Shown: positions 15,617-64,000 of the stretch, piece by piece
Layout: each line of letters starts with the position of its first letter
Numbering within the stretch: the stretch's first letter is position 1
Source of the DNA: an uncultured Treponemataceae bacterium
Lineage (GTDB): Bacteria; Spirochaetota; Spirochaetia; Treponematales; UBA12059
NCBI GenBank assembly: GCA_964482955.1
Contig: CAYZZW010000003.1
Coordinates: 68,676-132,675 of the forward strand
DNA: 64,000 nt
Direction: 5' to 3'
Notes under the pieces: generated by a model
Databases searched by the model: none
What the model was told of the DNA's origin: nothing
What the model saw: the letters and a program-made list of their open reading frames with translations, nothing else
Translations under genes and position numbers: made by a program

Positions 15617-15710
15617 CAGCGTCGTTTTGTATACGGAATACGCGCGGAGCGGAGCGCGTTAAGCGATGCGAACGCTTGACGCGCGCGCGTTTCCGGTGGT
15701 AATAGTTCGC

Positions 15711-34082: not shown

Positions 34083-34181
34083 GACGGACGCCGATTGTAC
34101 CGCGCCTTCGGGCGCGGGGCAAGGACCGGCCCGAACGCGCGTTCCGAAAAACCGCCTTGGAAAATTGCCAGCGGCGGGCAA

Positions 34182-37577: not shown

Positions 37578-37624
37578 CCGCGCGGCCGGTCTTTCGCGTC
37601 CGGCGCTCGGATCGGAGGGCCGCT

Positions 37625-38548: not shown

Positions 38549-38570
38549 CTCCGGTACGGTCCGGACGGGC

Positions 38571-48289: not shown

Positions 48290-48305
48290 CGGATACCCCA
48301 TTGTC

Positions 48306-49817
48306 TCAGCGGACGCTCTGGGCCAGACGCAGCCCGATGAACTCGTCGCGGTAGGACGGATCGTACGGGTAGCGTATGCTCGTGCGCGCGCCGTCCTCGT
48401 TGTAGTACCAGGAACCGCCGCGCAGGACGCGGTAATCGTCGCCGCCGGGGCCGACCGGATCGGTCTGGTCCGCGGCGTCGTAGCTCCCGAAATTGTCCCA
48501 GCACCATTCCCACACGTTGCCGCTCATGTCGTACAGCCCGAGCTCGTTCGCGGCCTTGAGCGCCACTTCGTGGGCCAGGTCGCCCGAGTTGCCCTTGTAG
48601 AACGCCACCGCGTCGATGTCGTCTGAACCCGCGTAACGGGTGCCCCGCGACTTCTGGCCGCCGCGCGCGGCGTATTCCCATTCGGCTTCGGTGGGCAGGC
48701 GGTAGCCGTCCGCGCCGAAATCGCACGTTACCGAAGCGCCGTCCACGCGGTACGCGGGCGCGAGCCCGTCCTTGAGGCTCTTGGCGTTGCAGAACGCGAC
48801 GGCGTCCAGCCACGACACCGATTCCACGGGAAGGTTCTTGTACCCCTGGATGGCGCTCGGGTTCGAACCCATGACCGACTGCCATTCGCCCTGCGTGACT
48901 TCGTACTTGCTCAGGCGATAGTCGCCCAGCGTCACCGCGTGCACCGGCTCGGCGATGCCGCGCTGGCCCATCTGGAAGGCGCCGCCCTTCACGAGGACGA
49001 ACTCCGACTTGAGCTGCGGCCGAGCCGCCGTGGGCTTGGCCGCGCGAGTGGGGATGGCCGCCGCGGGCTTCTTCGCGGTCGCGGAAGCCGTGTCGACCGT
49101 GGCCGACGAACCCGCCGGGCCCGACGATCTCCGTTCGGCTTCGGAACTCTGCCGCTTGAGCTCCGCCACCTTGTCGATGCGGGCTTTCGCCTCCGCGTAC
49201 TCGGCGGCGGCCACCATGCCCCGTTCGTTCATGCTCTCGAGCACTTCGCGCGCGAACGCCGGGGCCGCCGAATCGAGCGCCTTGTCGACGAGCGCGAGCC
49301 CTTCCTCTTTCGTCAGGATGGCCGCCGCGATGAAGCGACCGCGCTCGACTTCGACGCTTTCGTCCGCGCTCACGGCGTCGCGGAAGGGCAGGGTCATGGC
49401 CTCGACGTATTCGGCGCGCGCCAGCGCGGCTTCCATCGCCTTGGAAGCGGGCGCTTCGGCGCGTGCCGCCTCCAGCGCGTCCACCAGTTCCGAAACGGCG
49501 CGATCCCTCGTCATCCCCGTTTCGCTACTCGGCCCCACCTGACCGTTCGCGGTCATGCCAGCGAGCGCTTCGTCGACGAGCTTCGCCGCGGAATCGCGCG
49601 AAACGGAATCTTTGGCTTCCAGGGCGGACACGATGCCGCGGGCGGCGTCTTTCGGATCCGACGGCGCTGCGGATGGTGCGGTCGTCCGCGTTGAATCTGT
49701 CGTTGTAGAGTTTGTCGCGGTTTCCTTTTTCGTGCAGGAAACGAGCGCGATGAACGTCATCGTCGAAAGCAGCGCCGTGACGCAAAGTACCGCAATCATT
49801 TTGATCGTTCTTGTCAT
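48306..49817 (-). CDS. Lipoprotein with a C-terminal FGE-sulfatase (SUMF1/C-type-lectin-like fold) domain, probably non-catalytic
   Basis: 503-aa ORF. The lipobox is MTRTIKMIAVLCVTALLSTMTFIALVSC, followed by an Ala/Glu-rich helical region. The FGE-sulfatase domain has YRLSKYEVTQGEWQSVMG, YRLPTEAEWEYAARGG, LYDMSGNVWEWCWD and RVLRGGSWYYNEDGAR. The Cys pair of true formylglycine-generating enzymes is absent after RGGSW. Confidence 0.85.
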   Translation of the reverse strand: MTRTIKMIAVLCVTALLSTMTFIALVSCTKKETATNSTTTDSTRTTAPSAAPSDPKDAARGIVSALEAKDSVSRDSAAKLVDEALAGMTANGQVGPSSETGMTRDRAVSELVDALEAARAEAPASKAMEAALARAEYVEAMTLPFRDAVSADESVEVERGRFIAAAILTKEEGLALVDKALDSAAPAFAREVLESMNERGMVAAAEYAEAKARIDKVAELKRQSSEAERRSSGPAGSSATVDTASATAKKPAAAIPTRAAKPTAARPQLKSEFVLVKGGAFQMGQRGIAEPVHAVTLGDYRLSKYEVTQGEWQSVMGSNPSAIQGYKNLPVESVSWLDAVAFCNAKSLKDGLAPAYRVDGASVTCDFGADGYRLPTEAEWEYAARGGQKSRGTRYAGSDDIDAVAFYKGNSGDLAHEVALKAANELGLYDMSGNVWEWCWDNFGSYDAADQTDPVGPGGDDYRVLRGGSWYYNEDGARTSIRYPYDPSYRDEFIGLRLAQSVR

Positions 49818-49850
49818 GCCAGTACTCCCATGAATCGTCTGGTGAACCGT

Positions 49851-51116
49851 TTATTTCCGGATGTCTTCAAAGACGGCTTTCGAACCGTCCCAGCTGAAAT
49901 CGGCCGCTTTCGCGCGCGTTGTCCGGCCGTCGGCGAAGATGTCGGAATCGATGATGTGCCCGAGGATCACATCGCCCGACGCGTCGAGGCGGAGCTGGAT
50001 GCCTTGGGCGAAGCGATAGGTCTTGCCGTCAGCGGCCCGGAGCGGCGTCGGTTCTTTCAGGACGAGTACCGACTTGTCGAAACGTGCCGTGCCGCCCGTG
50101 AAATCCGCTCCCCACCCCAGCGTCTGCACGGCGACACCGCGGATGTCGGTGGTGCCTTCGGATCGCGCCACGCCCTGGATCACGCGGCCTTCGTCGTTCC
50201 AGTTGATCGACATCGCCCAACCGGGTTGGAACGCGTACGCCTTTCCGTCGTTCGCGTCGAGACGCGCCTCTTCATCGAGGTACGCCTCCCCGAGCAGGAT
50301 CGAAGGCTGCCCGCTTTCCGGGCGGTCGAACCAAGCCATGCACCACGCGACGGCAAGGTCGCGTCCCGCGAAGCGGATCTTCTGGCTTAGCAACGCGCCG
50401 CTCTTGACGAGTCCGGATCCGCCGTCATCGAAGCATGTGTAGCGGAATCCGGCGGTGAAATAATACGAACGTCCGTCCAGCGCTTCGAGACTCGTCATGG
50501 CGTCCAAGGCGACCTTGCGACGTCCGAAGACCGCGCGCCCTCCCTCGTCGAAACTCAAGTCGCACGCGTTCACGACGACCGGTCGACCCGTTTCCAGCTT
50601 GAGGGTGCGGACGCCTTGCACGGTTCCGCGCTCGACAAGACCTTCCGTCGTCAGCCACAGTTCCTCGCCTGCCATGAAAGGGTAAGCGTTTCCGTCACGC
50701 GCTTTCAGGATGATATCGTCGATCGGCATCGAAAAATCGCCCGCCAGATCGTACGCCGCGACACGGATTGTCCTGCCCTGAAGCGTCGCGTCCTTTTCTT
50801 CCCTGAATCCGGCTTCGAAAAGCGTTCCGTCCTTGTCGATGCATACCGGGTGGTCCCAACCGCCCATCAGGACGGTAGCCCGTCCGTCCGGCAGCGTCAC
50901 GTCGGCGTCGTTCCGCAAGTAAAGGCGATATCCGCCTCCGTCCAGCTCCGTGACGGAAACGCAATCGAGCTCCTGCCCGTTCCAGGAGAAGGAGCGCTCC
51001 GTATTTCCGCCCGAGCCGACGGCCTGTGCTTCTGGGTCCGCGCTCGTAAAAGGCAACGCGAGCTCGCTGACGATGAGGAGAAGGACAAGGCGGGCAAGGC
51101 GGCTCGGATGGATCAC
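49851..51116 (-). CDS. Exported repeat protein of unknown function
   Basis: 421-aa ORF preceded by GAGGAGG. The N-terminus is signal-like (MIHPSRLARLVLLLIVSELALPFTSA). It has at least five spaced repeats of the form DG(K/R/N)xYxFxxG ... G: DGRATVLMGG, DGNAYPFMAG, DGRSYYFTAG, DGKAYAFQPG, DGKTYRFAQG. I recognised no family. Confidence 0.7.
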   Translation of the reverse strand: MIHPSRLARLVLLLIVSELALPFTSADPEAQAVGSGGNTERSFSWNGQELDCVSVTELDGGGYRLYLRNDADVTLPDGRATVLMGGWDHPVCIDKDGTLFEAGFREEKDATLQGRTIRVAAYDLAGDFSMPIDDIILKARDGNAYPFMAGEELWLTTEGLVERGTVQGVRTLKLETGRPVVVNACDLSFDEGGRAVFGRRKVALDAMTSLEALDGRSYYFTAGFRYTCFDDGGSGLVKSGALLSQKIRFAGRDLAVAWCMAWFDRPESGQPSILLGEAYLDEEARLDANDGKAYAFQPGWAMSINWNDEGRVIQGVARSEGTTDIRGVAVQTLGWGADFTGGTARFDKSVLVLKEPTPLRAADGKTYRFAQGIQLRLDASGDVILGHIIDSDIFADGRTTRAKAADFSWDGSKAVFEDIRK

Positions 51117-51406
51117 GTGTTCCTCCTCGAACTTGTTGGCATGATACGATAATTACGAGGCCGGGTTTTGGGTTACGGGGGAGAAGGAAATTTGTTTCGC
51201 GTTCTTCGCGGATGCTTGAAAACGCCGCATCCGGAAGCGGGGATTCTCTCGACTAGTGATGATGTTGACCTCTGGAAACCGAAGCCGAGTATCGGCGAGC
51301 CCGAACCGTATGTCAAGGATAATGGGCGTCGCTGCGGCTGGTCGAAAAAGATAAAACATGCCGCTTCCGTCAGCTTGATCTCATGTTACACGAGCTTGAT
51401 TCCGGT

Positions 51407-51435
51407 TTGACAGCACCCGAAACGCCCCTTATAGT
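51407..51435 (+). promoter_or_regulatory. Candidate sigma70 promoter for the giant-gene operon
   Basis: TTGACA (51407-51412), a 17-nt spacer, then TATAGT (51430-51435), about 90 nt upstream of the ATG at 51528. It sits inside the AT-richer 411-bp divergent spacer. Confidence 0.45.
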
Positions 51436-51527
51436 GACCGCAACAAGTAACCGAAGACTAATCCGCGTGTTTATCGGGCAGGTCCACGACCGCTTTCCCG
51501 AAAATCCATGCATGAAGGACAAGCCAC

Positions 51528-54500
51528 ATGAAACGTCCGCGCATCGTCGCCCTCCTGACAGTGATCGTCGCCGCAGCTTCCTTCGCCCAAACCCCTTCTT
51601 TGGACGACTACCGCGTGTGGACCCAGCTCAAGGAATACGTCTATTGCGATACCGGCGTGGCGGAATCGGGGGAAGTGCTGGGTATCTTTCCGGATTTTCC
51701 GCCTTTCGCCGATTTCCCCTTTCGGTATCGGGGCCAGGACACCTTCGCGGTCACCGGATCAGGCAACGAGATTTTCGTGGACGGGAAACCGTATTGCCTG
51801 CTCGTGGAAACCGAAGCTGATTTCGCGAAAGCCGACGGACGTTACGAAGCGTTGTGGTTCACGGACGCCGCCCTGCTCAAGCCCGAACGTCTCAAGCTGC
51901 TCCCGAAGCCGCTCGCGGGACGCAGCATCAAGATTACCGGGGCGGACGACGAGACGATTGCCGGCATGGTGAATGCGGGAGTCCTGGATGGCGTGACGGT
52001 GCTCTCCGTCAGTCGGTGCCGTATCGGAGATGATACGGCGATAGCACTGTGCAAAAGGCTTCCCGATCTTGAATATCTTGATATCACCGCCACTGACGTC
52101 GGGGATCGCGGCTTTCTGGAAGGCGTCGTGTCGTTTTGCGGCGGATTGAGAGGACTCAGTATCCGGGAAACCCGAATAACGGAGGCGAGTTACGTCAAGG
52201 GAATTTCCAAACTCGCCACTTTGAGGAACCTGTATCTCGGGGACTGGTCAGGAACCAGCCTGACGGATCGGGCCATTGTCGATGGCGTTTGCGCCGTCAA
52301 AGGGCTCAGGAAGATCGACATCATGTGGGCCAGCAGTCCTACGGATGTTTCAATGGCGGCGCTTTCCGGATTGCCTGAACTCCGGAGCCTCGTTTTTTCC
52401 TGCCCGAAGGTGACGGATCGGGCACTGATGACTATCGCGAAAAACGCGAAAAAGCTGATGGAACTCCGCTTCGGAACCGGTCGGAACGCGAAACAAGATG
52501 ACGCCTTGGTTTCGCTGGGCGCGATGCAGAACCTGAAAATCCTGCATCTCAATACGGATTACGGAGTCGAGTGGAACGAAATCTACGAGCCCATCATGAG
52601 CGAAATCGCCTGGAGAGACGGTATCGGCAAGCTCGGGAATTTGAAGGTATTGGGAATCAACGGGGCGCGAATCACGGAAGCCGACGCGCGCGATGGTCTC
52701 GGTCGGCTCGAAAACCTCGAGTTCCTCCAGCTTATGGGCTCCGATCTGAACGACAGGACCATGTCCGTGGCCTTCGCCAACCTCCATAAGTTAAAGCGCG
52801 TGTATCTGAACGACTGCAAACAAGCCGGCGACGACGGGGCGATCGCTCTCTGCGTCAACAACCCGGGCATGGATACGCTTTACATCAGCCAGTCAACCAT
52901 CGGCGACCGGGCGTTCGTCGACGGGATTTCCCGCCTCAAGTCGCTCAGGACGCTCAACGTGTGGGGCAACCGACGCTTGGGAACGGATGGCGTCGTCGCA
53001 TTGTGCGAAGGATGTCCGGATCTGTTGTCGCTCGACATGCTCGGAGCCCAAGTAGACGTAAAAGCCTTCAACGAAGGCGTCGCATCGCTCAAGAAACTCG
53101 TCAGGCTCGGCGCGCAACAAACGTCGTTGTCGGACGATTTCTTTTCGGGGAATCCCGATATCGCGCCCAGGCTGAAAGTACTTGTCGCACACGATCACAC
53201 CGAATTGACCGATCGTTTCGCCAAAGAAGTATTGCCTAAAATGAGGAACCTTTATTCCCTCACGGTGGCGGGAACCCGGATTTCCGAGGAAGCCCTCTAC
53301 GCCGCGCTTCCGCGCCTCCCCCGCCTCTATTCGATCGACGACCAGACCGTGAAGGATAGGATGCGCTACCTGCTCGAGCGTATCGCCGTGAAAAAGCGGG
53401 TGGGGCCGGATATCTACAGATTCGATCCAGGCACGGGGACGCTCGGCGGACTCAAATGCGGCATGGCGCTGGCCGAGATAGAATCCGTTTACGGCAGGAA
53501 ACTCGTTCCGTGGAAAAACCCGGACGAGTGGGAACGGACGAACTTCGACGCCGTGTACGAACTGTTCGGTCTCAAGATCTGCTCCAAGAACGGCCGCGTG
53601 GCGCGGATCCTGAGCCCGTGGTGGGACATGAAGTTTTCGACCGTCGCCGGAACGACGCTCGGCATGAAACTCGAACGAGGTCTGGCGCTCGAGCGAAAAC
53701 CCGATGACATAAGTCAAAACAGCTTCGCGTTCCGCGATGGTCCGGAAACCCGCTCATTCTTGACTGAAGAAAAAGGTCGGATTGTCCATTTCGAAGTCAA
53801 TACGAAGATCGAATTTCTGGAAACCGCCGGACTGCCGTCGTTCGCTCCTCTGCCGAGGGAACTGGTTGATTCGCTCGGTGACCGGGCATTCATGTTCAAG
53901 ACAGGTAAGGAACTCGAGTTGTGCGGTATCGCGCCGGGCATGAAGATTCCCGAAATTCTCTCGAAAACGTACGCAAATTACGCGGCACTCGACGCCGTAA
54001 GGGAACTTCAAGCGCTGCCCGGCGAGACGATGTATCGTTTTCCGAACGTTGCCTTCGCGGCGAAGAACGGCATCGTGACGCGCGTACAGGGCAACCTATG
54101 GGACGCGCGACTCCATCTATCCAGCATGAACGTGAAGGTGGGCGACGATTCGGCGATGCTCGTGGCTTCGACCGGCGCCCCGCAGCGTACGACGAACCGG
54201 AGCGACGGCCTCCGTGAGCTCGCGTGGGACGCCGCGAAAGCGACGGTCGTCGTCATCGTGGACAGGCACGGAACCGTGGCCGGTTTCCGCCTGGAGATCC
54301 TGGCGTCAGGCGTTACGGGCGGCAACCGTGTATTCGACAACGAAGAAGATCCGAACGCCGGGGAACGCTTCCGCTCAGCCGTCGCGCGAATCTCCGAAGG
54401 ATCCGGGCGCTGGGAAGCATGGGACAACATCCGCGATTTCTCGTGTTCGAATGGCCGCATACTCGGCGTCGCGAGAAACGATGATCCCTACTTCGGCGCA

Positions 54501-55880
54501 GAAGGTCTTTCCATCGGGGGCGCGGAAGGGCAGAAGATCGTCGTGCGGTTCAAGGCGGGCTCGGGGGATTCGATCGGCATGTATTGGATAACCGAAGACG
54601 CGCCGGAATTCGATGAAGAAAAAGCGATGCATCTTCCTCTCGTTTCTGACGGCCAGTTCCGCGACTACGTGTTCGACGTGGGCGCCAGATCTGAATGGGC
54701 GGGCAAGCGGATCACCGGTCTCCGCATCGATCCGACGGAAGGCGGTCCCGGCGGACCGTTCGAGATCGAGTCGATCAAGGGCGTGTATCTATCGAAGTCG
54801 GAGCGCGAGGCGCTCGACCGGAAGAACAATCCGCAGCTCGGAAAATCCTTCGAGCGCATCGTTGCGAACTTGGCGGCCGAATGCGGCATGAGGCCGGGTT
54901 TCCGGACGGATTTCAAAGACGCGGCTATCAAGACTTTTGACCGGTGGAATTCGCCGGAACTCGTCGTGAAAGACGGAGCGGTCATATTCGCGAAGGGCAA
55001 TACCGAAGATCCCGCGTTCGTCCGGCCGTCTACCATGAAGCCGGGCAAGCTCATAGCCCTGCGCTTCCGCAAGACGCCGGGAGCCAGATTCGCGATGGAT
55101 GTCGAACGCGGAACCTGGGACACGCCGGATTTCCAGAGCATACACGTGGAAGGGGTTCCCGAACAGGAATGGTATTCGAGCGGATTCAACGCGGGAGCCG
55201 ATAAGCGCGCGGACTGGGAAACCCGTGGATACGAGGTCAAAAACGACGGCGAGTACCTGGCCGTCTGGACGACGACCGAAGACGGGAAACTTCTGGTGAA
55301 TGTCTATGACGCGAATGGCCGTGAATGGAGTTCGGGACCGCGTTTGGCCGTCGCCGGCATGCCCTGGCATTGGATCGTCAGGATATGGGAAGGTTCGATA
55401 AAGCTGGTAGACTACGCCGAATACGAAATCGTCAAACCGGCGAGTGATTTTGCGAAGATCATGGAGGTCATTTCCGCGGACCCCGCCGGCTGGTATCCGC
55501 TCAATCAAATGAAGGGCCTGGATTCCGCGGGAACGACGCTGAAGGGTACGGCGACCGGTGGCGATCCGAGTCTGGAACGATACGATATGTGTTTTCAAGG
55601 CGACAGGAACCAAACCATCGTGATTCGCGCCAAGGCCGAATCCGGAAAGATGATCGCCCTGTATTGGTGCAGCAACGACACGAATACCATGGACGAGACA
55701 AAGTCCATCCATCTTCCGCTCATCGCGGACGGCAAGTTCCACGATTACGTCTTCAAGGTAGGTTCCGATCCCGATTGGATCGGCAAGACTATATCCGGTC
55801 TCCGCATCGACCCGACGGAAGGCGGCCCCGGTGGCCCGTTCGAGATCGAGTTGATCAAAGGTCTCTACAAAGGAAGGTAA
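51528..55880 (+). CDS. Giant exported protein 1: conserved N-domain, RNI-type leucine-rich repeats, small beta-rich domains, and two copies of an unassigned ~140-aa module flanking a ~220-aa module
   Basis: 1450-aa ORF with a signal-like N-terminus (MKRPRIVALLTVIVAAASFAQ). The LRR array spans roughly aa 140-600 (nt 51945-53327), for example LPDLEYLDITATDVGDRGFLEGV and LENLEFLQLMGSDLNDRTM. The modules end in GLRIDPTEGGPGGPFEIESIKGVY (A1, nt 54378-54788) and GLRIDPTEGGPGGPFEIELIKGLY (A2, nt 55449-55868). Confidence 0.85.
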   Translation: MKRPRIVALLTVIVAAASFAQTPSLDDYRVWTQLKEYVYCDTGVAESGEVLGIFPDFPPFADFPFRYRGQDTFAVTGSGNEIFVDGKPYCLLVETEADFAKADGRYEALWFTDAALLKPERLKLLPKPLAGRSIKITGADDETIAGMVNAGVLDGVTVLSVSRCRIGDDTAIALCKRLPDLEYLDITATDVGDRGFLEGVVSFCGGLRGLSIRETRITEASYVKGISKLATLRNLYLGDWSGTSLTDRAIVDGVCAVKGLRKIDIMWASSPTDVSMAALSGLPELRSLVFSCPKVTDRALMTIAKNAKKLMELRFGTGRNAKQDDALVSLGAMQNLKILHLNTDYGVEWNEIYEPIMSEIAWRDGIGKLGNLKVLGINGARITEADARDGLGRLENLEFLQLMGSDLNDRTMSVAFANLHKLKRVYLNDCKQAGDDGAIALCVNNPGMDTLYISQSTIGDRAFVDGISRLKSLRTLNVWGNRRLGTDGVVALCEGCPDLLSLDMLGAQVDVKAFNEGVASLKKLVRLGAQQTSLSDDFFSGNPDIAPRLKVLVAHDHTELTDRFAKEVLPKMRNLYSLTVAGTRISEEALYAALPRLPRLYSIDDQTVKDRMRYLLERIAVKKRVGPDIYRFDPGTGTLGGLKCGMALAEIESVYGRKLVPWKNPDEWERTNFDAVYELFGLKICSKNGRVARILSPWWDMKFSTVAGTTLGMKLERGLALERKPDDISQNSFAFRDGPETRSFLTEEKGRIVHFEVNTKIEFLETAGLPSFAPLPRELVDSLGDRAFMFKTGKELELCGIAPGMKIPEILSKTYANYAALDAVRELQALPGETMYRFPNVAFAAKNGIVTRVQGNLWDARLHLSSMNVKVGDDSAMLVASTGAPQRTTNRSDGLRELAWDAAKATVVVIVDRHGTVAGFRLEILASGVTGGNRVFDNEEDPNAGERFRSAVARISEGSGRWEAWDNIRDFSCSNGRILGVARNDDPYFGAEGLSIGGAEGQKIVVRFKAGSGDSIGMYWITEDAPEFDEEKAMHLPLVSDGQFRDYVFDVGARSEWAGKRITGLRIDPTEGGPGGPFEIESIKGVYLSKSEREALDRKNNPQLGKSFERIVANLAAECGMRPGFRTDFKDAAIKTFDRWNSPELVVKDGAVIFAKGNTEDPAFVRPSTMKPGKLIALRFRKTPGARFAMDVERGTWDTPDFQSIHVEGVPEQEWYSSGFNAGADKRADWETRGYEVKNDGEYLAVWTTTEDGKLLVNVYDANGREWSSGPRLAVAGMPWHWIVRIWEGSIKLVDYAEYEIVKPASDFAKIMEVISADPAGWYPLNQMKGLDSAGTTLKGTATGGDPSLERYDMCFQGDRNQTIVIRAKAESGKMIALYWCSNDTNTMDETKSIHLPLIADGKFHDYVFKVGSDPDWIGKTISGLRIDPTEGGPGGPFEIELIKGLYKGR

Positions 55881-55883
55881 ACG

Positions 55884-58800
55884 ATGAACAAATCATCCCG
55901 CGTCACGCTGATGCTCGCGCTGCTGTGTGCGGCCATGGTGACCGCGCAGGCCCCGTCTCCGGACGGGTACCGGCACTGCATCGTGTTCAAGGAAAACGCG
56001 TTCATCGACGACTTTTGCGCGCGACCCGGGGACCTCGTGAGCATAAGCGTCGATTTCCCGCCGTGGGGCAGCGTGCCGTTCCGCTATGAAGGCCAGGAAT
56101 CGATACGGATCTCCGGCAAGGGCAACGAGATCTTCATAGACGGGAAACCGTGGTGCCTGCTCATCGAGTCGGAGGCGGATTTCGCCAAGGCGGATTCGCG
56201 CTACGCCGCGCTCTGGTTCACGAAAGGCGAACTCCTGAAGCCGGAGTACTTCAAGAAGATCCCCGGATCGCTGGCCAATAGGATCATCCGGGTATCGAAA
56301 ACGACCACGGAACAGTGGAAGGCGATAGCGGAGTCCGGAGCCTTGGACGCGGTAACCATTCTGGACATTTCCGGTTGCCCGATCCAGGGCCATTGGTTCC
56401 TGCCGACGCTCAAGCGCATGCCGAATCTCGTGTACCTCGACGCGAGCAATACGAATATCAACGATGGCGGAGCACTGGCGAGTCTCCAAGAGTATGCGGG
56501 AACTCCGAAACTAGAAACGTTGCTCTTGCATGGCGTGATTGTCTGGGAAGCCGATTTGGTGAACGGGATTTCAAAGCTAACGATGCTTCGTTCCCTCGCG
56601 TTCGTCAACTATTGGGAAGGTTTTCCAAAACCTGAGGTCATAAGTGCTCTGTGCAAGCTTGAAAAACTGGAAAATCTCGAACTGGGACCGGTTGCTTTTC
56701 TTTCCGACGACAATCTCAAGACAATCTGCGAACGGCTCGTGAATCTCCGGAAACTGCGTATCTATTCGAAAAAAGCAACGTCGGCAGCCGTCATCGACTC
56801 AATTTCAAAACGCACAGACCTCGTGGAATTGCAACTCGGTCTGTCGACGAACGGACTTTCGGAAGACGCGGTCGTGTCGCTGTCGAAGCTGCAAAACCTC
56901 AAAAAGCTCAACCTCAATACGGATTACTGGCCCAACTGGAACGAGCCTTTCAAGCCGCTGCTGACGGAACGGAGCTGGATCGACGGTCTCGGCAAGCTCG
57001 CTTCGCTCGAAAGCTTAACCGCGTACGGGGCGCGGATCACGGAAAAAGCCGCGCGGGAGGGATTGGGGCGGCTTTCGAACTTGACCTATCTCGATCTGTG
57101 CGGCAACGAGCTCGACGACGCGGGGGCCAAGGCCGCGTTCCCGACGCTCGGGAAGCTCCGCCACCTCAACCTCTATCGATCTCCCAAGTTGGGCGATGAC
57201 GGAGTGGTAGCCGTCTGCGCTGGTGCTCCGCAACTTGAAACGCTGCTCGTGACGAGCTCCGGACTTTCGGATCGCGGCATCAAGGAGGGAATCGCCAAGC
57301 TGTCGAAGTTGCGCGTGACGAAGCTGTCGATCAACAAGATAACGGCGGACGGCTTGATCGCCCTCTGCTCGGCGATACCGGGCATTACCACGTTGGACAT
57401 CGGCGGACAGAATATCGAGGACCGCGGTTTCGTCGAAGGCTTGCCCAAACTGAAAAATCTGGAAGTATTGAACGCATGGCAGTCGCTCATTACCGACCGG
57501 TACTTCCTGGAGCATCCCGAAATGGCGACGAAGTTCCGCGTGCTTGATTTCCATGACCACGCGATGATGACCGATCGCTTCGCCAAGGAAGTCCTGCCGA
57601 CGATGACAAACCTGCATTCCTTGAACGTAGACAAAAATCCCGTGAGCGAGGAAGCGGTCGTGTCGGTACTGCCGCGGCTTCCGCGTCTCGACACTCTGGA
57701 CGGAGAACCGGTATTTGAACGGCAAAAGCGGTATGTCGAGCGGATTGGCATCAAGAAACGCGTCGGGTCGGGAATTTATACGTTCGACGTGGCGACGAAC
57801 GTCTACGGCGGGGTGCGGCTCGGCATGACCTTGCAGGAAGTCGCGTCCATCTACGGTTCAATGCCCACACGCGTGGCCAAGCCCAGCGAATGGGAGGCGA
57901 AGACCTTCGAATCGGTCTGGGAGAACTTCAACCTCCGCTTTGGGGTAAAACGGAACCGCGTCGTCCGCATCGCGGGGCAGTGGTGGGATCCGAGGTATAC
58001 GACCAAGACTGGCGTGCGACCCGGGACGATCCTCGCCGCGGCCAAGACGGCCGACCGGGCGCCGGACGAAGTCCGCGACGACGCGCTCGTGTACCGCAAC
58101 GGCATCGTCTCGTTCACGATCGGCGCGTACGCCTTGGTCGGTTCCGATCGCTACGTCACGGATTTCTCGGCCGACGCGGACATCGACGCGCTCGAAGCCT
58201 CCGGTCTGCCGAAGCTCGCGCCGTTCGACGATGTACTCAATACCGCTTTGAAAGGCGACGCCTTTACGCTCAGGACTGGGGACAAGCCTTCGATCGGCGG
58301 CATCCGGCCGGGCATGAAGTACGACGGCGTCGTATGGAACGTCTACGCCGGGCAGGCGCCGCTCGAGGGATCCCCGGGCGTGAAAGCCGCAGCCGGCGAA
58401 AAGTCGTACCATTACGGCAACGTCTCGTTCGGCGCGAAGAACGGTCTCGTTACCTGGGTGTCGGGCAACGCGTGGGACGAACGATTCAAGGTTTCGAAAC
58501 CCCGCATGCGCGTGGGCGATCCGGCGGACGAACTCCTCAGGAAAGCCGGCCCGGCGGCGAGGAAGGCGAAAACGGACGACGGGCTCGACGATCTGGCGTG
58601 GGAAACGCCCGACGCCGTGGTGCATGTTTTTATCGACCGATATGGCACGATCGCGGGCTTCCGGCTTGACGCCCAAACCACCGCTAAAATACCGCGCCAT
58701 CCGTTCTGGAACGATCCGACGGATTACGGAAAGGGTGTGTCCGCGTGGGGCTCGCTCAAGCCGGGAGACGTCGCGGAATTCACGGCGGGCGGGGTGTCCT

Positions 58801-61715
58801 TCGCGATGCGCTTCGTGCCGGGCACGACCTTCCCGCAGGGATGGGAAGACGTCGACGTCGCGACGCTCGACGCGGGATTCTGGCTCGGCGAGACGGAAGT
58901 GACCTGGGAGCTCTGGGATGCCGTGGTCTCGTGGGCTACCGATCCGGCGAGGGGTGAAGCGATGTATCGTTTCGCCCAAACGGGTTGGCAGGGCGGATTC
59001 ACCGGACCCCAATGGATCGTGGATCCGCGCAGCACCGACCAGCATCCCGTGACGCTCGTCGCCTGGCGCAGTTCCATGATTTGGTGCAACGCGCTCACCG
59101 AATGGTACAACGCGACGAACGGCACTTCGTACACCTGCGCGTATTACGAAGACGCCGATTATAAAAAACCCATACGCACCTGCACGGACGAACGAAACGT
59201 CAATACCATCGAAGGCAAGCAGGACCGGCCCTATGTCAAGGCGGAGCTTCCCGGCAACGTGGATCCCGCCCGCTGCGACGCCACGGGCTTCCGGATGCAG
59301 CGCGCGCTCGAGTGGGAACTGGCGGCCCGCTACCGCGGCGACACGAACGACGATGGAGATATCCGGGATCCGGGAGAGTATTCTCCCTATAACTGGGCAA
59401 GCGGCGCCAAAGGGGACTTCAACGACATGGCCGCGACCGCGGAGGTGGCGAACGTCGATAAAGTCCTGACCGAACGCGTCGGAACGAGGAAGGCAAATGC
59501 CCTCGGCATCCACGACATGAGCGGAAACGTGTCGGAATGGTGTTTTGACGGTGAACCGACCGAAGGCAATCCCGTCCGCACCCGCGTCGGCTCCTCCTGG
59601 TCGTGGGGCCCGGGAATACACAACGGTTGCGCCGTGGTCGAACGCTGGATGCTGTATGGCACGAATACGGGCACCGGCTTGCGCGTAGCGCGGTCGTGGT
59701 TCCCCGAGGCAACCGCGGCGCGGACCGCTACGCAAAAAGAAGCGTACTGGCGCTCCGCTCTCGAAAAGTTGGCGCTTTCGCCCCGCGGCTGGAAGGCGGC
59801 CGACCAGGTCGCCGATCTCCAATCGGACCGCGGCCTCGTCTCCGGCCAGGCGACGGGCGGAAAGCCGATCCTCTTCCGTGACGATCTCCGTCTCTTCGGA
59901 GAAGCCGGCCAGGCGATTCCGATCCGCGTTTCCGCGGCCTCCGGTTCCGCGCTTCGCCTGTACTGGATCACGGACGACGACGGCGCGTGGTCCGAGAAAA
60001 AATCATTGCGCGTTCCGATCAAAGCCGACGGCACAGTCCACGACTACGTCCTGCAAGTCGGGACGAACGCGGCGTGGGCTGGCAAGATCGTCACCGCCCT
60101 CAGGCTCGTTCCGGCGGAAGGCGGGAAGGGCGGCGCGTTCTCCGTCGACTTCGGCGGCGGCGCCGCGTGCTACGAAGAGAGCCGCGCGAACCCCGAATTC
60201 GCCAAGGCGATCGAACTGCTCTCCGCCCATCCGGAAGTCTGGAGCGCGTGGAACCAGGTGGAAGGGCTCGCGGTTTCGAAGGGCATAATCAAGGGTAAGG
60301 CTACGGGGGGCGATCCTTTCATCGGCATCAATCGGACGCGCCTTGTCGGCACCACGACACAGAAGATCCTCATCCGCATCAAGGCCGTTTCGGGTGATCG
60401 AACCGCCATATTCTGGACCACGACCGACGATACGAACTGGGGCGGCGACAAGTGCGTGAGCGTGCCGCTCGTCCCCGACGGCGCTTTCCACGACTACGTG
60501 TTCGACGTCGGCGCGAATCCGGCTTGGGCAGGCTGGGTGATTAACAGGCTCCGCATAGATCCGACCGCGGGCGGTCCGGGCGGGCCTTTCGAGATCGAGT
60601 CGATCAAAGGCGTGTACGTATCGAAAGAAGAACGGGCGGCCGCGGAGCGCGCCGCGAATCCGCAGCTCGGGAAATCCTTCGAGCGCATCGTGGCTGATCT
60701 TGCCGCCGAGCGTGGGATGAAACCGGGTTTCCGGACGGATTTCAAGGACGCCGCGTTCAAGACCTTCGACCTCTGGGAAGAACCTGAAATCGCCGTAAAA
60801 GACGGCTTTCTTCAGTTCACGAAAGGGAAGACGCAAAATCCCGTGCTCGCGCGGTACCAAGCGATGAAAGCGGGAAGGATGATCGCGCTGCGGTTTTCGA
60901 TGCTGAAAGGAGCGCGCTTCTGCTTCATGCTCGAACGTGGCGAATGGCCGACCCCGGCGTATCAAAAGTCGATCCTGTGCGGCGGATCGGAAAGCGGATG
61001 GGGGTTGGATGAAGGCGGGGTTGACGCGACAAAGGCCCTCGCGTGGGATGCAAGCGGCTACACGGTCAAGCAGGGACCCGAATACCTGGCCGTATGGACC
61101 GCGACGCCCGACGGGAAGATCGGTCTCGCCGTGTACGATGGTACCGGGCGCGAGTGGCGCGCCGTATCATGTGCGGACGGCTCGGGCGCTCCGTGGATGC
61201 TGACCATCCGGATCGGTCAAGGTTCTATCAAGCTCATCGACTACGCGGAATACGAAACAGTCCAGCTGGCGAGCGACTTTCCGAAAATCATGGACGGCAT
61301 CTCCGCGAACCCGGCCGGGTGGAACCCGATCAACCACCTGAAGGATTTGAAAGCCGCGGGCACGATTTTGAAGGGTGTGGCGACGGGGGACGATCCGTAC
61401 ATGGAGCGCTACGACCTGTGCTTCGAGGGGGACATAAGTCACAAGATAGTCGTTCGGCTCAAAGCTGTTTCAGGTGACGACACCGAATTTCTGTGGATCA
61501 CCGCGGAGGAACCGAATTGGGGCGGGAACAAAGGACTCGGTGTTTCACTCATCCCGGACGGGCAGTTTCACGACTACGTGTTCGACGTGGGCAGCCGGAA
61601 AGAATGGGCCGGCAAGCGGATCACGGGACTCAGGCTCGATCCGACCGCGGGCGGACCGGGCGGGTCCTTCGAGCTCGAATCGATCAAGGGCGTGTACGAA
61701 ACGCAGAATCGCTGA
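55884..61715 (+). CDS. Giant exported protein 2: paralogue of protein 1 with an extra FGE-sulfatase domain and three copies of the ~140-aa module
   Basis: 1943-aa ORF starting 3 nt after the previous stop, with AGGAAGG upstream. The signal is MNKSSRVTLMLALLCAAMVTAQA. It is collinear with protein 1 over aa 1-930. An inserted FGE-sulfatase domain covers roughly nt 58776-59702 (FWLGETEVTWELWDAV, FRMQRALEWELAARY, IHDMSGNVSEWCFDG). The modules are B1 59742-60158, B2 60195-60617 and B3 61275-61697. Confidence 0.85.
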   Translation: MNKSSRVTLMLALLCAAMVTAQAPSPDGYRHCIVFKENAFIDDFCARPGDLVSISVDFPPWGSVPFRYEGQESIRISGKGNEIFIDGKPWCLLIESEADFAKADSRYAALWFTKGELLKPEYFKKIPGSLANRIIRVSKTTTEQWKAIAESGALDAVTILDISGCPIQGHWFLPTLKRMPNLVYLDASNTNINDGGALASLQEYAGTPKLETLLLHGVIVWEADLVNGISKLTMLRSLAFVNYWEGFPKPEVISALCKLEKLENLELGPVAFLSDDNLKTICERLVNLRKLRIYSKKATSAAVIDSISKRTDLVELQLGLSTNGLSEDAVVSLSKLQNLKKLNLNTDYWPNWNEPFKPLLTERSWIDGLGKLASLESLTAYGARITEKAAREGLGRLSNLTYLDLCGNELDDAGAKAAFPTLGKLRHLNLYRSPKLGDDGVVAVCAGAPQLETLLVTSSGLSDRGIKEGIAKLSKLRVTKLSINKITADGLIALCSAIPGITTLDIGGQNIEDRGFVEGLPKLKNLEVLNAWQSLITDRYFLEHPEMATKFRVLDFHDHAMMTDRFAKEVLPTMTNLHSLNVDKNPVSEEAVVSVLPRLPRLDTLDGEPVFERQKRYVERIGIKKRVGSGIYTFDVATNVYGGVRLGMTLQEVASIYGSMPTRVAKPSEWEAKTFESVWENFNLRFGVKRNRVVRIAGQWWDPRYTTKTGVRPGTILAAAKTADRAPDEVRDDALVYRNGIVSFTIGAYALVGSDRYVTDFSADADIDALEASGLPKLAPFDDVLNTALKGDAFTLRTGDKPSIGGIRPGMKYDGVVWNVYAGQAPLEGSPGVKAAAGEKSYHYGNVSFGAKNGLVTWVSGNAWDERFKVSKPRMRVGDPADELLRKAGPAARKAKTDDGLDDLAWETPDAVVHVFIDRYGTIAGFRLDAQTTAKIPRHPFWNDPTDYGKGVSAWGSLKPGDVAEFTAGGVSFAMRFVPGTTFPQGWEDVDVATLDAGFWLGETEVTWELWDAVVSWATDPARGEAMYRFAQTGWQGGFTGPQWIVDPRSTDQHPVTLVAWRSSMIWCNALTEWYNATNGTSYTCAYYEDADYKKPIRTCTDERNVNTIEGKQDRPYVKAELPGNVDPARCDATGFRMQRALEWELAARYRGDTNDDGDIRDPGEYSPYNWASGAKGDFNDMAATAEVANVDKVLTERVGTRKANALGIHDMSGNVSEWCFDGEPTEGNPVRTRVGSSWSWGPGIHNGCAVVERWMLYGTNTGTGLRVARSWFPEATAARTATQKEAYWRSALEKLALSPRGWKAADQVADLQSDRGLVSGQATGGKPILFRDDLRLFGEAGQAIPIRVSAASGSALRLYWITDDDGAWSEKKSLRVPIKADGTVHDYVLQVGTNAAWAGKIVTALRLVPAEGGKGGAFSVDFGGGAACYEESRANPEFAKAIELLSAHPEVWSAWNQVEGLAVSKGIIKGKATGGDPFIGINRTRLVGTTTQKILIRIKAVSGDRTAIFWTTTDDTNWGGDKCVSVPLVPDGAFHDYVFDVGANPAWAGWVINRLRIDPTAGGPGGPFEIESIKGVYVSKEERAAAERAANPQLGKSFERIVADLAAERGMKPGFRTDFKDAAFKTFDLWEEPEIAVKDGFLQFTKGKTQNPVLARYQAMKAGRMIALRFSMLKGARFCFMLERGEWPTPAYQKSILCGGSESGWGLDEGGVDATKALAWDASGYTVKQGPEYLAVWTATPDGKIGLAVYDGTGREWRAVSCADGSGAPWMLTIRIGQGSIKLIDYAEYETVQLASDFPKIMDGISANPAGWNPINHLKDLKAAGTILKGVATGDDPYMERYDLCFEGDISHKIVVRLKAVSGDDTEFLWITAEEPNWGGNKGLGVSLIPDGQFHDYVFDVGSRKEWAGKRITGLRLDPTAGGPGGSFELESIKGVYETQNR

Positions 61716-61724
61716 GGAGAAAAC

Positions 61725-62318
61725 ATGGATATTGCCGACGGCAAGCACCGCATGAGCGACGAGGATATGCGTCGTTTGATAGATCTAAGCGTATCGCCGT
61801 ATCTGCAGCTGGCGTACCGGCTCGTGGACGTGCCGCGGAAATACCACGGCAACATGTTCCGTCACCAGGGAGCCACCTTCTTCATCCTCATCGACTACGG
61901 CTACACGGACCACGTCCTGCTCAAGGCTTCGATCATCCACGACATCCTCGAGGACACGCCTACGAAACCGGAAGAGATCGAACGGCTCGACGACGGGGCC
62001 GCGGTGCTGGCGCTCGTGCGCGAAGTGACGAAGGCGGAGGATGAAACGAAGGACGAGTTCCTCGGACGCATCGTGGCCGCGGGATCCGAACGGGCGCGCG
62101 TCCTCAAGTGCGCGGACCGGATTTCCAACATGACGGACATCGGCTTTTCGTGCGAGTACGAGGAGCTCATGAAAACCGTCAGGGAGACGGAGCGGCACAT
62201 CCTGCCGATGGCGCGCTCGATCAATCCGTGGATGGCGAAGGAGCTCGAGGATCTCGTCGCGTCGCGTACGGCGATAGCCGCGCGAATGCTCGAAAACGGA
62301 AAAGGAAGAAGATTCTAA
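61725..62318 (+). CDS. HD-domain hydrolase resembling the SpoT/RelA (p)ppGpp-hydrolase domain (small-alarmone-hydrolase-like)
   Basis: 197-aa ORF starting 9 nt after the giant gene, preceded by GAGGAG. Motifs are FRHQGATFFIL, ASIIHDILEDTPTKPEEI, VLALVREVTK and ARVLKCADRISNM, in the same order as the SpoT hydrolase HD motifs. There is no signal peptide. Confidence 0.75.
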   Translation: MDIADGKHRMSDEDMRRLIDLSVSPYLQLAYRLVDVPRKYHGNMFRHQGATFFILIDYGYTDHVLLKASIIHDILEDTPTKPEEIERLDDGAAVLALVREVTKAEDETKDEFLGRIVAAGSERARVLKCADRISNMTDIGFSCEYEELMKTVRETERHILPMARSINPWMAKELEDLVASRTAIAARMLENGKGRRF

Positions 62319-62362
62319 AAGGCCGGACCGCTTGGTCTCGTTCGATGCTTGCGCGACCTGCT

Positions 62363-62908
62363 TCACGCCCGCAGCATGCCCCTGAAGCCGCGTACCGCAT
62401 AGTAGGAGTCCGCGCCGTTGTGGTAGACGAACACGCGGCCGTAGCGGCGGTCGCCGAAGATGGCGCCGCCGAGCTTCCGCACTCCGGGCGGCGTCTCGAG
62501 CCAGCTCGAGGTCTTCAAGTCGAACTCGCCGAGTTCCTGGAGCGCGCGGTACCGCTCCTCGGTGAGGAGCTCGATTCCCAGCTCCTTGGCCAGGCTGGCG
62601 GCGTCGCCCGCGGGCTGATGCTCCTTACGCGACTCCAGCCCCGCGCGGTCGTAGCACAGGCTCCGCCTGCCGGCCGGGCTTTCAGCCGCGCAGTCGACGA
62701 ACAGGCATTCGCCGGTTTTCCCGTCGATTCCGATCACGTCGGGCTCCCCGCCCGTGCGCTCCATGCCGTCGACCGCGTCGAGCTTTTTCGGATTCGCGTC
62801 GAGCCGGGCGCGGACCGTCTCCCACGCGACGCCCTCGTGGCGTTCCGCGTTCGCCTCGAAGCGGAACCGCAGGATTTCGGTCAATTCTTTCCGTCGTTTC
62901 GCGTCCAT
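62363..62908 (-). CDS. DUF4256-family protein
   Basis: Track ORF trimmed to Met13 (ATG at 62908). Recognisable family strings are MERTGGEPDVIGID, RRSLCYD, KTSSWLETP and VFVYHNGADSYYAVRGFRG. Confidence 0.75.
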   Translation of the reverse strand: MDAKRRKELTEILRFRFEANAERHEGVAWETVRARLDANPKKLDAVDGMERTGGEPDVIGIDGKTGECLFVDCAAESPAGRRSLCYDRAGLESRKEHQPAGDAASLAKELGIELLTEERYRALQELGEFDLKTSSWLETPPGVRKLGGAIFGDRRYGRVFVYHNGADSYYAVRGFRGMLRA

Positions 62909-62940
62909 GCGTTTCCCCCTCCCGTTCGGGCGGCTTGACC

Positions 62941-63426
62941 TCAACCGACCTCGTAGGCGCGGCGCAGCGCGGCCACGTCGAACTTTTTCATGGCCATGAA
63001 CGCCTCGGTGACCGCGCGGCGCTGACCGGTCGTCCCGGTTTGCAGCATCTCACCGAGTCCGGACGGCACGATCTGCCACGACACGCCGTACTTGTCGCGC
63101 AGCCAGCCGCATTGCTCCGCCTCGGGATACGCGGACAGCCGCTCCCAGAACCGGTCGATCTCTTCCTGGTCGTCGCATTCGACCATGAACGACACCGACG
63201 GATTGAACCGGAACTCGGGACCGGCGTTGATGGCGATGAACCTGGACCCGCGTATCTCGAACTCGATGGTGAGGATGTCGCCTTCCTCGTGGCCCGTGAT
63301 CTCCTCGCCGACGTCGGTATAGCGGTCGACGGCGAGGATCCGACCGTCCTCGAACACCGACAGATAGAAGTCGACGGCTTCCTTCGCGTTGCCGTCGAAC
63401 CAGAGGTTCGGCGTGATTCCTCTCAT
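62941..63426 (-). CDS. VOC-superfamily protein (PhnB / 3-demethylubiquinone-9 3-methyltransferase-domain type)
   Basis: 161-aa ORF, MRGITPNLWFDGNAKEAVDFYLSVF ... CGWLRDKYGVSWQIVP ... MKKFDVAALRRAY, a pattern typical of this family. Confidence 0.8.
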   Translation of the reverse strand: MRGITPNLWFDGNAKEAVDFYLSVFEDGRILAVDRYTDVGEEITGHEEGDILTIEFEIRGSRFIAINAGPEFRFNPSVSFMVECDDQEEIDRFWERLSAYPEAEQCGWLRDKYGVSWQIVPSGLGEMLQTGTTGQRRAVTEAFMAMKKFDVAALRRAYEVG

Positions 63427-63496
63427 GGCGCGCCCCTTCCCGGATCCGTCGTCCGGTTTCCCTCAAGATACCGAAATCCGGGCGGAACGAGCACGT

Positions 63497-64000
63497 TCAC
63501 CACACGCCGGGAATGAGCTTGAAGCGCACCCGTTTCACGTACTCTTCGTAGCCGGGCAGCCCTTCGCGCAGCACCTTTTCCTCGTTCGCGATGCGGAGGG
63601 CGAGCACGAACGGCATGAGGAGGGCGGGCGCGAGCGCCACGAACGATCCGAGCGCCAGGGCCGATCCAGCGTAGATGAAGATGATCGCCGTGTACATGGG
63701 ATGCCGCACGATCGAGTAGAGCCCCGTATCGACCAGGGTTTGACGCTCCTGGATTTCCACGACGCGCGACGCGTAGGCGTTCTGGAGCATCGCGACCAGG
63801 TTGACGACGTAGCCGCCCGTCACGACGGCGAAGCCGACGACGACGAGCCAGGTCGGCACGGCCGTCCAGCCGTAGCGCCGGTCCAACCCGGGCAGCGCGT
63901 AGACGAGGAGAATCGCGATGGAGGACGCGACGACGAACGCCACCTGCGCCTTTTGCGTCTCGCGCGTCTTGAGCCGCTTGCGGAGCAGTTCCCGGTCCGT
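63497..64000 (-). CDS. Isoprenylcysteine carboxyl / phospholipid methyltransferase-family membrane protein; the 5' end lies beyond the right edge
   Basis: The C-terminal motif is VRHPMYTAIIFIYAGSALALGS...LRIANEEKVLREGLPGYEEYVKRVRFKLIPGVW. My translation upstream of the track start (GTG at 63943) stays open to position 64000 (...DRELLRKRLKTRETQKAQ), so the real start is probably outside the window. Confidence 0.75.
   Translation of the reverse strand, partial: TDRELLRKRLKTRETQKAQVAFVVASSIAILLVYALPGLDRRYGWTAVPTWLVVVGFAVVTGGYVVNLVAMLQNAYASRVVEIQERQTLVDTGLYSIVRHPMYTAIIFIYAGSALALGSFVALAPALLMPFVLALRIANEEKVLREGLPGYEEYVKRVRFKLIPGVW

Follow-up and report, generated by a model that had tools for sequence, protein, structure and literature searches.

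Two tandem genes for giant exported proteins that combine leucine-rich repeats with a lectin-like array in an uncultured Treponemataceae bacterium

Exported leucine-rich-repeat (LRR) proteins of bacteria, such as the internalins and the Planctomycetota-type proteins P0002 and P0003, combine a signal peptide with a long protein-binding LRR solenoid. The same combination is found in the products of two adjacent genes of an uncultured Treponemataceae bacterium that are the subject of this analysis, ORF1 and ORF2 (ORF, open reading frame). The genes encode proteins of 1450 and 1943 amino acids (aa) and lie in a 64,000-nucleotide (nt) stretch of DNA, hereafter the window (contig CAYZZW010000003.1, positions 68,676 to 132,675). 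P0002 and P0003 are the best LRR-only relatives of the pair, with 23% identity over ~20% of the query. Internalins are built of 22-aa repeats and have an inter-repeat Ig domain and an LPXTG or GW anchor, whereas the pair has repeats of 25-26 aa and neither such a domain nor such an anchor. Its scores against the internalin models NF033189 (26.7 bits, cut-off 1600) and NF033188 (18.8 bits, cut-off 1050) place it outside class 1 of this family, and the lectin-like C-terminal array of the pair has no counterpart in any of these LRR proteins.

Other described systems resemble single parts of this array. Type-B beta-sandwich carbohydrate-binding modules (CBMs), namely CBM4, CBM9/22, CBM29, CBM11, and CBM86, are the best fold matches of a 145-aa module repeated in both proteins, and this module, too, accompanies catalytic domains of carbohydrate-active enzymes (CAZymes). 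Having 8-18% identity to these families and no match to a CBM model in Pfam, it lies outside the defined CBM sequence families. The megatron baseplate protein of roseophage R4C (vB_DshS-R4C, 8gtc_M) contains a domain that is, like the module, a peripheral beta-sandwich accessory domain, and it is read as a binder of host polysaccharide. However, that domain occurs in a single copy in a phage tail protein, with sugar binding proposed for it, and the window encodes cellular exported LRR proteins. Finally, TvpA of Treponema denticola (2y3c) is a diversified ligand-binding protein with the C-type-lectin fold. It is linked to one domain of ORF2 by PF03781 kinship, the ORF2 domain being devoid of the cysteine pair. 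In contrast to TvpA, the ORF2 domain forms a single link in a chain of 1943 aa, and neither a repeat pair in the window nor a reverse transcriptase among the ORFs scanned points to a retroelement beside it, so it does not qualify as a variable protein of a diversity-generating retroelement.

The two genes and the domains of their products are as follows (GC3, GC content at third codon positions; AF2, AlphaFold2 model).

51528..55880, + strand: ORF1, the shorter paralogue, 1450 aa, ATG start, GC3 0.71
51528..51587, + strand: ORF1 Sec signal peptide, MKRPRIVALLTVIVAAASFA followed by Q (read from the sequence by eye)
51588..51932, + strand: ORF1 orphan N-domain, aa 21-135, ~115 aa, its core 67% identical to ORF2
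51933..53372, + strand: ORF1 LRR array, aa 136-615, ~17 repeats of 25-26 aa (Pfam; repeats counted by eye)
53385..54302, + strand: ORF1 pair of small orphan domains of ~150 aa each, aa 620-770 and 771-925 (hhalign)
54345..54788, + strand: ORF1 module 1, aa 940-1087, CBM-like beta-sandwich (AF2, Foldseek, PDB profile match)
54789..55421, + strand: ORF1 middle domain, aa 1088-1298, modelled as two helices and then a beta-sandwich (AF2, Foldseek)
55422..55877, + strand: ORF1 module 2, aa 1299-1450 (module comparison)
55884..61715, + strand: ORF2, the longer paralogue, 1943 aa, ATG start, GC3 0.76
55884..57728, + strand: ORF2 signal peptide (MNKSSRVTLMLALLCAAMVTA followed by Q), N-domain, and LRR array, aa 1-615 (sequence, Pfam, BLASTP)
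57741..58673, + strand: ORF2 counterpart of the small-domain pair, orphan, aa 620-930 (hhalign homology)
58746..59693, + strand: ORF2 FGE-sulfatase-like (C-type-lectin-fold) domain, ~aa 955-1270 (PF03781)
59721..60170, + strand: ORF2 extra module, aa 1280-1429, which diverges more than the other four copies
60171..61712, + strand: ORF2 C-terminal unit, consisting of a module (aa 1430-1579), the middle domain (aa 1580-1792), and a module (aa 1790-1943)

An earlier note on this DNA had described these two ORFs as collinear paralogues; the reading frames are exactly as given there, and BLASTP confirms their relationship. Residues 2-923 of ORF1 align with residues 3-929 of ORF2 (367/930 identities, 39%, 11 gaps), and residues 940-1448 align with residues 1431-1939 without a single gap (268/509 identities, 53%). 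The similarity is far above chance and has no low-complexity basis; the pairwise alignment that the note had proposed is collinear rather than patchy. The N-domain peptides quoted there are present, and the similarity seen at the DNA level (~54700-54930 versus 60530-60760) is real, forming part of a block with 74% identity over 388 nt (54636-55020 versus 60465-60849, E 8e-65) that is accompanied by four further, shorter blocks. The C-terminal order of module, middle domain, and module was also given correctly, the middle domain having 210 aa. ORF2 starts 3 nt past the stop codon of ORF1. The same two-gene arrangement, with both genes complete, is observed in the Logan assembly of the sequencing run SRR10083294 (L001), and the assembly of SRR10083296 (L002) contains ORF1 and the first 213 residues of ORF2, where the contig ends. 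Since the arrangement recurs in assemblies of two runs, mis-assembly is unlikely. As whole proteins, ORF1 and ORF2 fit no characterized family, as had been suspected: Pfam, NCBIfam, and PADLOC yield only LRR and FGE-sulfatase matches.

Both proteins begin with signal peptides visible in the sequence, with predicted cleavage between SFA and Q in ORF1 and between VTA and Q in ORF2, in agreement with the earlier proposal that they are exported. The N-domain that follows has no match in Pfam or PDB, and a scan of JGI metagenomes with it is empty. Matches of the LRR array above the Pfam cut-offs include LRR_4 (50.9 bits, cut-off 27), LRR_14 (47.4 and 62.1 bits, cut-off 40), and LRR_6 (27 bits, cut-off 23.4), and LRR_At5g56370 is also among the Pfam LRR matches. 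By these matches, the tandem repeats belong to the RNI-like, or cysteine-containing, class, which is marked by the pattern LxxLxLxx(N/C)xL. Their description as RNI-type thus holds for the group, but not for the repeat itself, which has 25-26 residues and is of the cysteine-containing/F-box-like kind instead of the classical RI repeat of 28-29 residues. Comparison by hhalign shows homology between the two small domains behind the array (E 9e-7, probability 91%); they have no PDB match, and their only Pfam match is a sub-threshold one to DUF7256 (E 0.002). From their sequence pattern, read by eye, they might conceivably be BamE/BLIP-like. The ending GTVAGFRLE / GTIAGFRLD, ascribed to both of them, is present in the second small domain and absent from the first. 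The N-, small, and middle domains are without a clear relative among the matches inspected, and none was found among 235 collected proteins or elsewhere in the window.

The C-terminal array is dominated by the module, of which ORF1 has two copies and ORF2 three. Its AF2 model, obtained from a 40-sequence alignment, is confident (predicted local distance difference test score, pLDDT, 95.8; predicted template-modelling score, pTM, 0.89) and consists of a helix followed by a beta-sandwich of ~10 strands. In the Foldseek comparison with PDB, the model matches CBM4, CBM29, CBM86, CBM11, accessory or C-terminal domains of GH85 endo-glycosidases, and sandwich domains of Cry toxins (E 1e-7 to 1e-5). 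CBMs or accessory domains of glycoside hydrolases make up the majority of the 50 matches listed (template-modelling, TM, score 0.5-0.6), and the Bacteroides surface glycan-binding protein 7kwc is also among the fold matches. The best matches among the viral models of BFVD are phage fibre and tip-attachment proteins, with TM scores of up to 0.73. The modelled fold is that of a beta-sandwich (jelly-roll) CBM. At the sequence level, the sole relative in PDB is the segment of aa 489-626 in the R4C protein 8gtc_M, which matches the whole module (E 4.6e-10); aa 482-629 of this protein were named a carbohydrate-binding domain and proposed to attach to capsular polysaccharide (PMC10276861).

A profile search with aa 600-1450 of ORF1 and the matching pieces of ORF2 against 1.84 billion representative proteins (clusters at 50% identity) yielded 1,947 representative proteins or clusters at E<=1e-3. 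In each of the best 150 of these 1,947 matches, window proteins aside, the module is the best-scoring matched stretch. Its carriers are large proteins that contain from one to eight copies (P0005-P0153; loci L003-L007). The domains found beside it in 47 carriers include right-handed beta-helix/pectate-lyase-like domains (6), GH99 (4), and WbsX (3), and further companions are GH28, CBM_4_9, CBM6, CBM35, SLH, dockerin, and T9SS sorting domains. A profile scan of genome contigs also detected relatives of the module only, in metagenome-assembled genomes (MAGs) labelled Planctomycetaceae, Kiritimatiellia, Akkermansia, and Lentisphaeraceae; the genome of the window itself was not among the matches. 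Most relatives start with a W.F....eGW strand at the point where the window copies open with an alpha-helix. In NCBIfam, no match to the module was obtained with the two window proteins. Because of the size of the family, the confident fold model, and the R4C relative, we regard the module as a widespread CBM-like domain without a Pfam model, for which sugar binding is plausible. The modules are therefore not private to these genes.

The middle domain, enclosed by two modules in both proteins, is 55% identical between ORF1 and ORF2. It has no sequence match in Pfam or PDB, and the scan of JGI metagenomes with it is likewise empty. All 50 fold matches listed by Foldseek are ConA-like (E ~1e-4, TM scores 0.31-0.49, root-mean-square deviation 6-12 A), and they include Emp46/47, GH16, galectins, C-terminal domains of thrombospondin, and DUF1080. 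Judging by this model, the domain probably has the ConA-like lectin/glucanase fold. The possibility that it is a divergent copy of the module was considered and rejected (hhalign probability 0.3%).

The paralogues differ by an ORF2-specific block of ~500 residues, which separates the C-terminal unit from the small domains. This block opens with a member of the formylglycine-generating enzyme (SUMF1/FGE) family, matching PF03781 at aa 993-1222 (68.1 bits, cut-off 23.3); ORF1 has no such domain. To form formylglycine, a true FGE needs two catalytic cysteines, arranged as C-x4-C and situated towards the C-terminus of the domain. The corresponding ORF2 segment, RVGSSWSWGPGIHNGCAVVERW, contains one cysteine and no C-x4-C (checked by eye), so the domain appears to be non-catalytic for want of the cysteine pair. 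Its relatives, 40-47% identical, are found in many exported multi-domain proteins, several named ones coming from Spirochaetota MAGs, and the nearest solved relatives include 5aoh and TvpA (2y3c). The only DNA match of the FGE region in the window is a conserved YDMSGNV.EWC motif common to ORF2 and a neighboring gene of the FGE-sulfatase family. Copying of the ORF2 domain from this neighbor was rejected, as the two are similar over 94 aa only (35%). Signs of a diversity-generating retroelement are absent as well: the 64-kb window contains no template/variable repeat pair, and there is no reverse transcriptase among the ORFs scanned.

The second part of the block is the extra module. A contiguous cassette of an FGE-like domain and a module, matching aa 960-1421 of ORF2, also occurs in P0045, an uncharacterized metagenomic protein from an unrelated sequencing run (1254 aa; L009, 220-3984; Logan assembly of SRR22746138), with 40% identity over 486 aa (E 7e-105). 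The C-terminus of P0045 is weakly similar to the middle domain (hhalign E 0.003, probability 10%). Unlike ORF2, P0045 contains TPRs and a single module, lacks the LRRs, the N-domain, and the small domains, and lies in another gene neighborhood. No other partial relative of the architecture of the pair was found. The module is absent from 73 further relatives of the FGE-like domain. Since the same contiguous cassette is present in P0045, its gain by ORF2 as a ready-made unit is favored by the sequence comparison, with loss from ORF1 as the alternative. Of the scenario proposed earlier, tandem duplication followed by domain gain, the duplication stands and the insert is now identified; the direction of the change is less firm, gain by ORF2 being the more likely course in a comparison without an outgroup.

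The age of the duplication can be seen from the synonymous sites. At four-fold degenerate sites of conserved amino acids, identity is 0.35-0.51 depending on the domain, and 0.34 is expected at saturation for this base composition. Synonymous sites have thus almost reached saturation, which makes the duplication an old one. The same holds for the four-fold sites of the C-terminal part, and thus the higher protein identity of this part reflects selection; for the same reason, recent gene conversion across most of the C-terminal half was rejected. A different pattern is seen at the ends of the modules. In four of the five modules, the last 47 codons and the adjoining linker have a third-position identity of 0.43-0.66 versus the background of ~0.34.

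54648-54788, 55728-55868, 60477-60617, and 61557-61697: module 3' ends with raised third-position identity

At its 3' end, ORF1 module 1 resembles ORF2 module 3 (83% over 141 nt) more than its positional partner. This pattern suggests short sequence exchange, or gene conversion, between modules. Because the module ends point to such later exchange, the history of the pair is more mosaic than one duplication and one insertion. The old tandem duplication would have been followed by the gain of the cassette in ORF2 (or its loss from ORF1) and then by short exchanges between the modules.

Every identifiable part of the two proteins is of a binding type and none looks catalytic; for this reason we read them as binding proteins. 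In this reading, to which we assign a probability only slightly above one half (about 0.55), the two proteins would be made from one transcript, exported, and active as multivalent binders in the envelope or at the cell surface. Glycans would be the ligands of the C-terminal array, whether they belong to the envelope or exopolysaccharide of the cell itself, to another cell, or to a substrate, and the LRR solenoid of ~17 repeats would bind a protein partner. ORF2 extends this chain of binding units by a third module and a C-type-lectin-like domain of the FGE type, which is non-catalytic.

Several observations weigh against this reading. Protein binding or a role as spacer is also known for CBM-like, ConA-like, and C-type-lectin folds. 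The resemblance of the module to characterized CBMs amounts to a TM score of ~0.55 at 8-18% identity, and no Pfam model, those of CBMs included, matches the module in the window copies (E<=10) or in the module regions of 57 relatives. Structure prediction by segment, as proposed in the earlier note, gave a confident result for the module (pLDDT 95.8) and a weak one for the middle domain, whose AF2 model, built from a two-sequence alignment, is of low confidence (pLDDT 60.9, pTM 0.66). The N-, small, and middle domains could hide an activity. No glycan-utilization genes were found near the pair among the scanned ORFs of the 64-kb window. Apart from the Sec peptide, neither protein has a signal for anchoring or secretion (lipobox, LPXTG, PEP-CTERM, T9SS C-terminal domain, or SLH); because only the Sec peptide is present and an anchor motif is not, the proteins may be periplasmic rather than exposed at the surface.

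A bolder reading goes further in two respects. ORF1 and ORF2 would found an undescribed LRR-plus-lectin-array family and act as a heteromeric envelope receptor that couples recognition of glycans (by the modules and the ConA-like and FGE-like domains) to recognition of proteins by the LRRs, and the module would represent a new, very widespread CBM family with ~2,000 clusters at 50% identity, distributed over CAZymes, surface proteins, and phage tail proteins. We consider this combination unlikely.

The genomic context of the pair includes the following features.

51407..51435, + strand: sigma-70-like promoter, TTGACA-17-TATAGT, 93 nt 5' of the ORF1 ATG (11/12 match; consensus match only)
61725..62318, + strand: HD-domain protein, 197 aa, RelA/SpoT-hydrolase-like (TIGR00691 E 4.6e-11, far below the family cut-off)
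49851..51116, - strand: exported repeat protein, 421 aa, transcribed divergently, GC3 0.76
44087-49817, - strand: TPR+CHAT (caspase-like) protein, 1404 aa, with a signal peptide, and then a 503-aa FGE-sulfatase-family protein

Only two promoter-like sites are found in the region 49800-63500, both of them in the divergent intergenic region, and an AAGGA ribosome-binding site lies 9 nt ahead of the ORF1 ATG. The gene of the HD-domain protein starts 9 nt past the ORF2 stop codon, and from this spacing it probably belongs to the same transcript as the two giant genes. Its matches to HD_4 and HD in Pfam are weak. The protein may be a small alarmone hydrolase, and its co-transcription with two giant exported proteins would be an odd pairing.

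Together with the divergent gene, these genes form a compositional island of four genes (49851-62318) with a GC content of 0.57-0.61 and GC3 of 0.71-0.80, compared with a GC content of 0.65-0.74 and GC3 of ~0.9 in the flanks. Either horizontal acquisition or a weak codon bias of genes that are seldom expressed could account for such a composition. The divergent gene encodes a 421-aa protein of ~8 degenerate repeats of ~45 aa with the pattern DG..Y.F..G....G.V..G, for which Pfam, NCBIfam, and PADLOC yield no match; its position and composition suggest a possible link to the giants. Beyond it, the CHAT protein (PF12770, E 2.4e-49) and its FGE-sulfatase neighbor (E 5.4e-48), the latter with the lipobox LVSC and without the catalytic cysteines, resemble a pair of an exported protease and a lectin-like lipoprotein. 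Among the anti-phage defence models of PADLOC, nothing matches ORF1, ORF2, the FGE neighbor, or the HD protein, and the CHAT protein gives only a generic TPR match; no defence system is recognized.

The remainder of the window is ordinary chromosome of ~68% GC, encoding PolA, a purine-biosynthesis cluster, IMPDH, NrfA, transporters, and a chemoreceptor; no tRNA or Rfam matches were obtained. Among eight housekeeping and neighboring proteins looked up by exact sequence, seven are singletons at 90% identity. The purine cluster contains two gene fusions, PurS with a PurL-type FGAM synthase (974 aa, 15666-18590, + strand) and PurD-PurM (GARS-AIRS, 762 aa, 22307-24595, + strand). In the region 32286-38701, three long ORFs of 1728, 1393, and 1440 aa overlap one another across both strands, as is typical of high-GC sequence. 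The + strand frame matches known families only in part, with MCP signalling and SBP_bac_5 domains at 34302-37574, and on its 5' side it overlaps with a histidine-kinase gene of the opposite strand (32286-34223). The 1393-aa ORF on the minus strand is probably spurious because it has no Pfam match and a wrong GC pattern over codon positions.

Readings of the pair other than that of envelope binding proteins were also weighed. As part of a conflict or immunity island that includes the 421-aa protein, the FGE-like lipoprotein, and the TPR-CHAT protein, the LRR and C-type-lectin-like domains would sense foreign molecules in the envelope and the caspase-like CHAT protease would be the effector. The TPR+CHAT and FGE-sulfatase genes are indeed located directly upstream, on the opposite strand, both of their products carry export signals, and the FGE-type domain of ORF2 is akin to TvpA, a diversified ligand-binding protein. 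Hypermutated putative antigen sensors in bacterial conflict systems are described in a 2024 paper (PMC10907252). However, the composition separates these genes: GC3 is host-like in the CHAT gene (0.88) and in the FGE neighbor (0.84) and only 0.71-0.76 in the giants, and this difference speaks against their acquisition as a single unit. The genes belong to separate, divergent transcription units, the FGE-like domains of ORF2 and of the neighbor are distant (35% over 94 aa), and the contig of P0045 has no such neighbors. With PADLOC empty except for the generic TPR match, and no STAND or other NTPase and no template/variable repeat pair found, a conflict island seems quite improbable. The pair could also supply the substrate-capturing or scaffold parts of a polysaccharide-degrading apparatus, in the manner of surface glycan-binding proteins or multi-CBM scaffolds, and keep insoluble glycans at the cell for digestion by separate enzymes. 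The module's fold matches to CBM4, CBM29, CBM86, and 7kwc agree with such a role, as does the enrichment of the module family in proteins with glycoside-hydrolase, pectate-lyase-like, and classical CBM domains. The window is less favorable to it, as its scanned ORFs include no glycoside hydrolase, SusC/D-like gene, or sugar transporter; dockerin, cohesin, and SLH domains are absent from the pair, and a solenoid of 17 LRRs with orphan domains is foreign to known glycan-capture proteins. We view a scaffold function as doubtful, though somewhat less so than a role in conflict.

A hidden enzymatic function, with the middle domain as a GH16-like endo-glycanase or the FGE-like domain as an oxidase of the SUMF1/EgtB/PvdO type modifying envelope polymers, is very unlikely. 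Its appeal comes from the middle domain, whose fold matches include GH16 glucanases and mucin O-glycanases, and from the true enzymes in the FGE family, the neighboring FGE protein itself matching EgtB, SenA, and PvdO in NCBIfam. However, the model of the middle domain is weak (pLDDT 61), and catalysis in this domain is disfavored because its sole GH16-like acidic stretch, MDVERG in ORF1, is not kept in ORF2, where it reads FMLERG. As for the FGE-like domain of ORF2, it has no cysteine pair, and its solved relatives include the non-enzymatic TvpA. Finally, decaying genes or an assembly artefact, such as repeats that were collapsed or joined into a chimera when the MAG was assembled, might explain the atypical composition (GC content 0.57-0.61 versus 0.65-0.71 in the flanks, and GC3 0.71-0.76 versus ~0.9) and the restriction of these sequences to a single lineage. 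This explanation is already largely refuted and retains hardly any credibility: the frames of 1450 and 1943 codons contain no interruption, conservation between the copies is graded by domain with synonymous sites saturated, a sign of purifying selection, promoter-like and ribosome-binding signals are present, and the arrangement is found in the Logan assemblies of two runs, in one of them completely.

In summary, the pair represents an unusual family within the giant exported modular binding proteins, from a poorly sampled lineage, rather than a new kind of biology, and nothing in the locus bears on a long-standing open question. If the reading as envelope or surface binding proteins is true, the pair adds one more architecture to the poorly charted giant exported binding proteins of uncultured bacteria. 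It is also a clean example of an old tandem duplication with cassette-wise gain or loss and probable exchange of sequence between modules. Of most use beyond this locus is the module family, which, with ~1,950 clusters and a single solved relative, could be considered for curation as a new domain or CBM family; its curation and testing could improve the annotation of many CAZyme-like and phage receptor-binding proteins.

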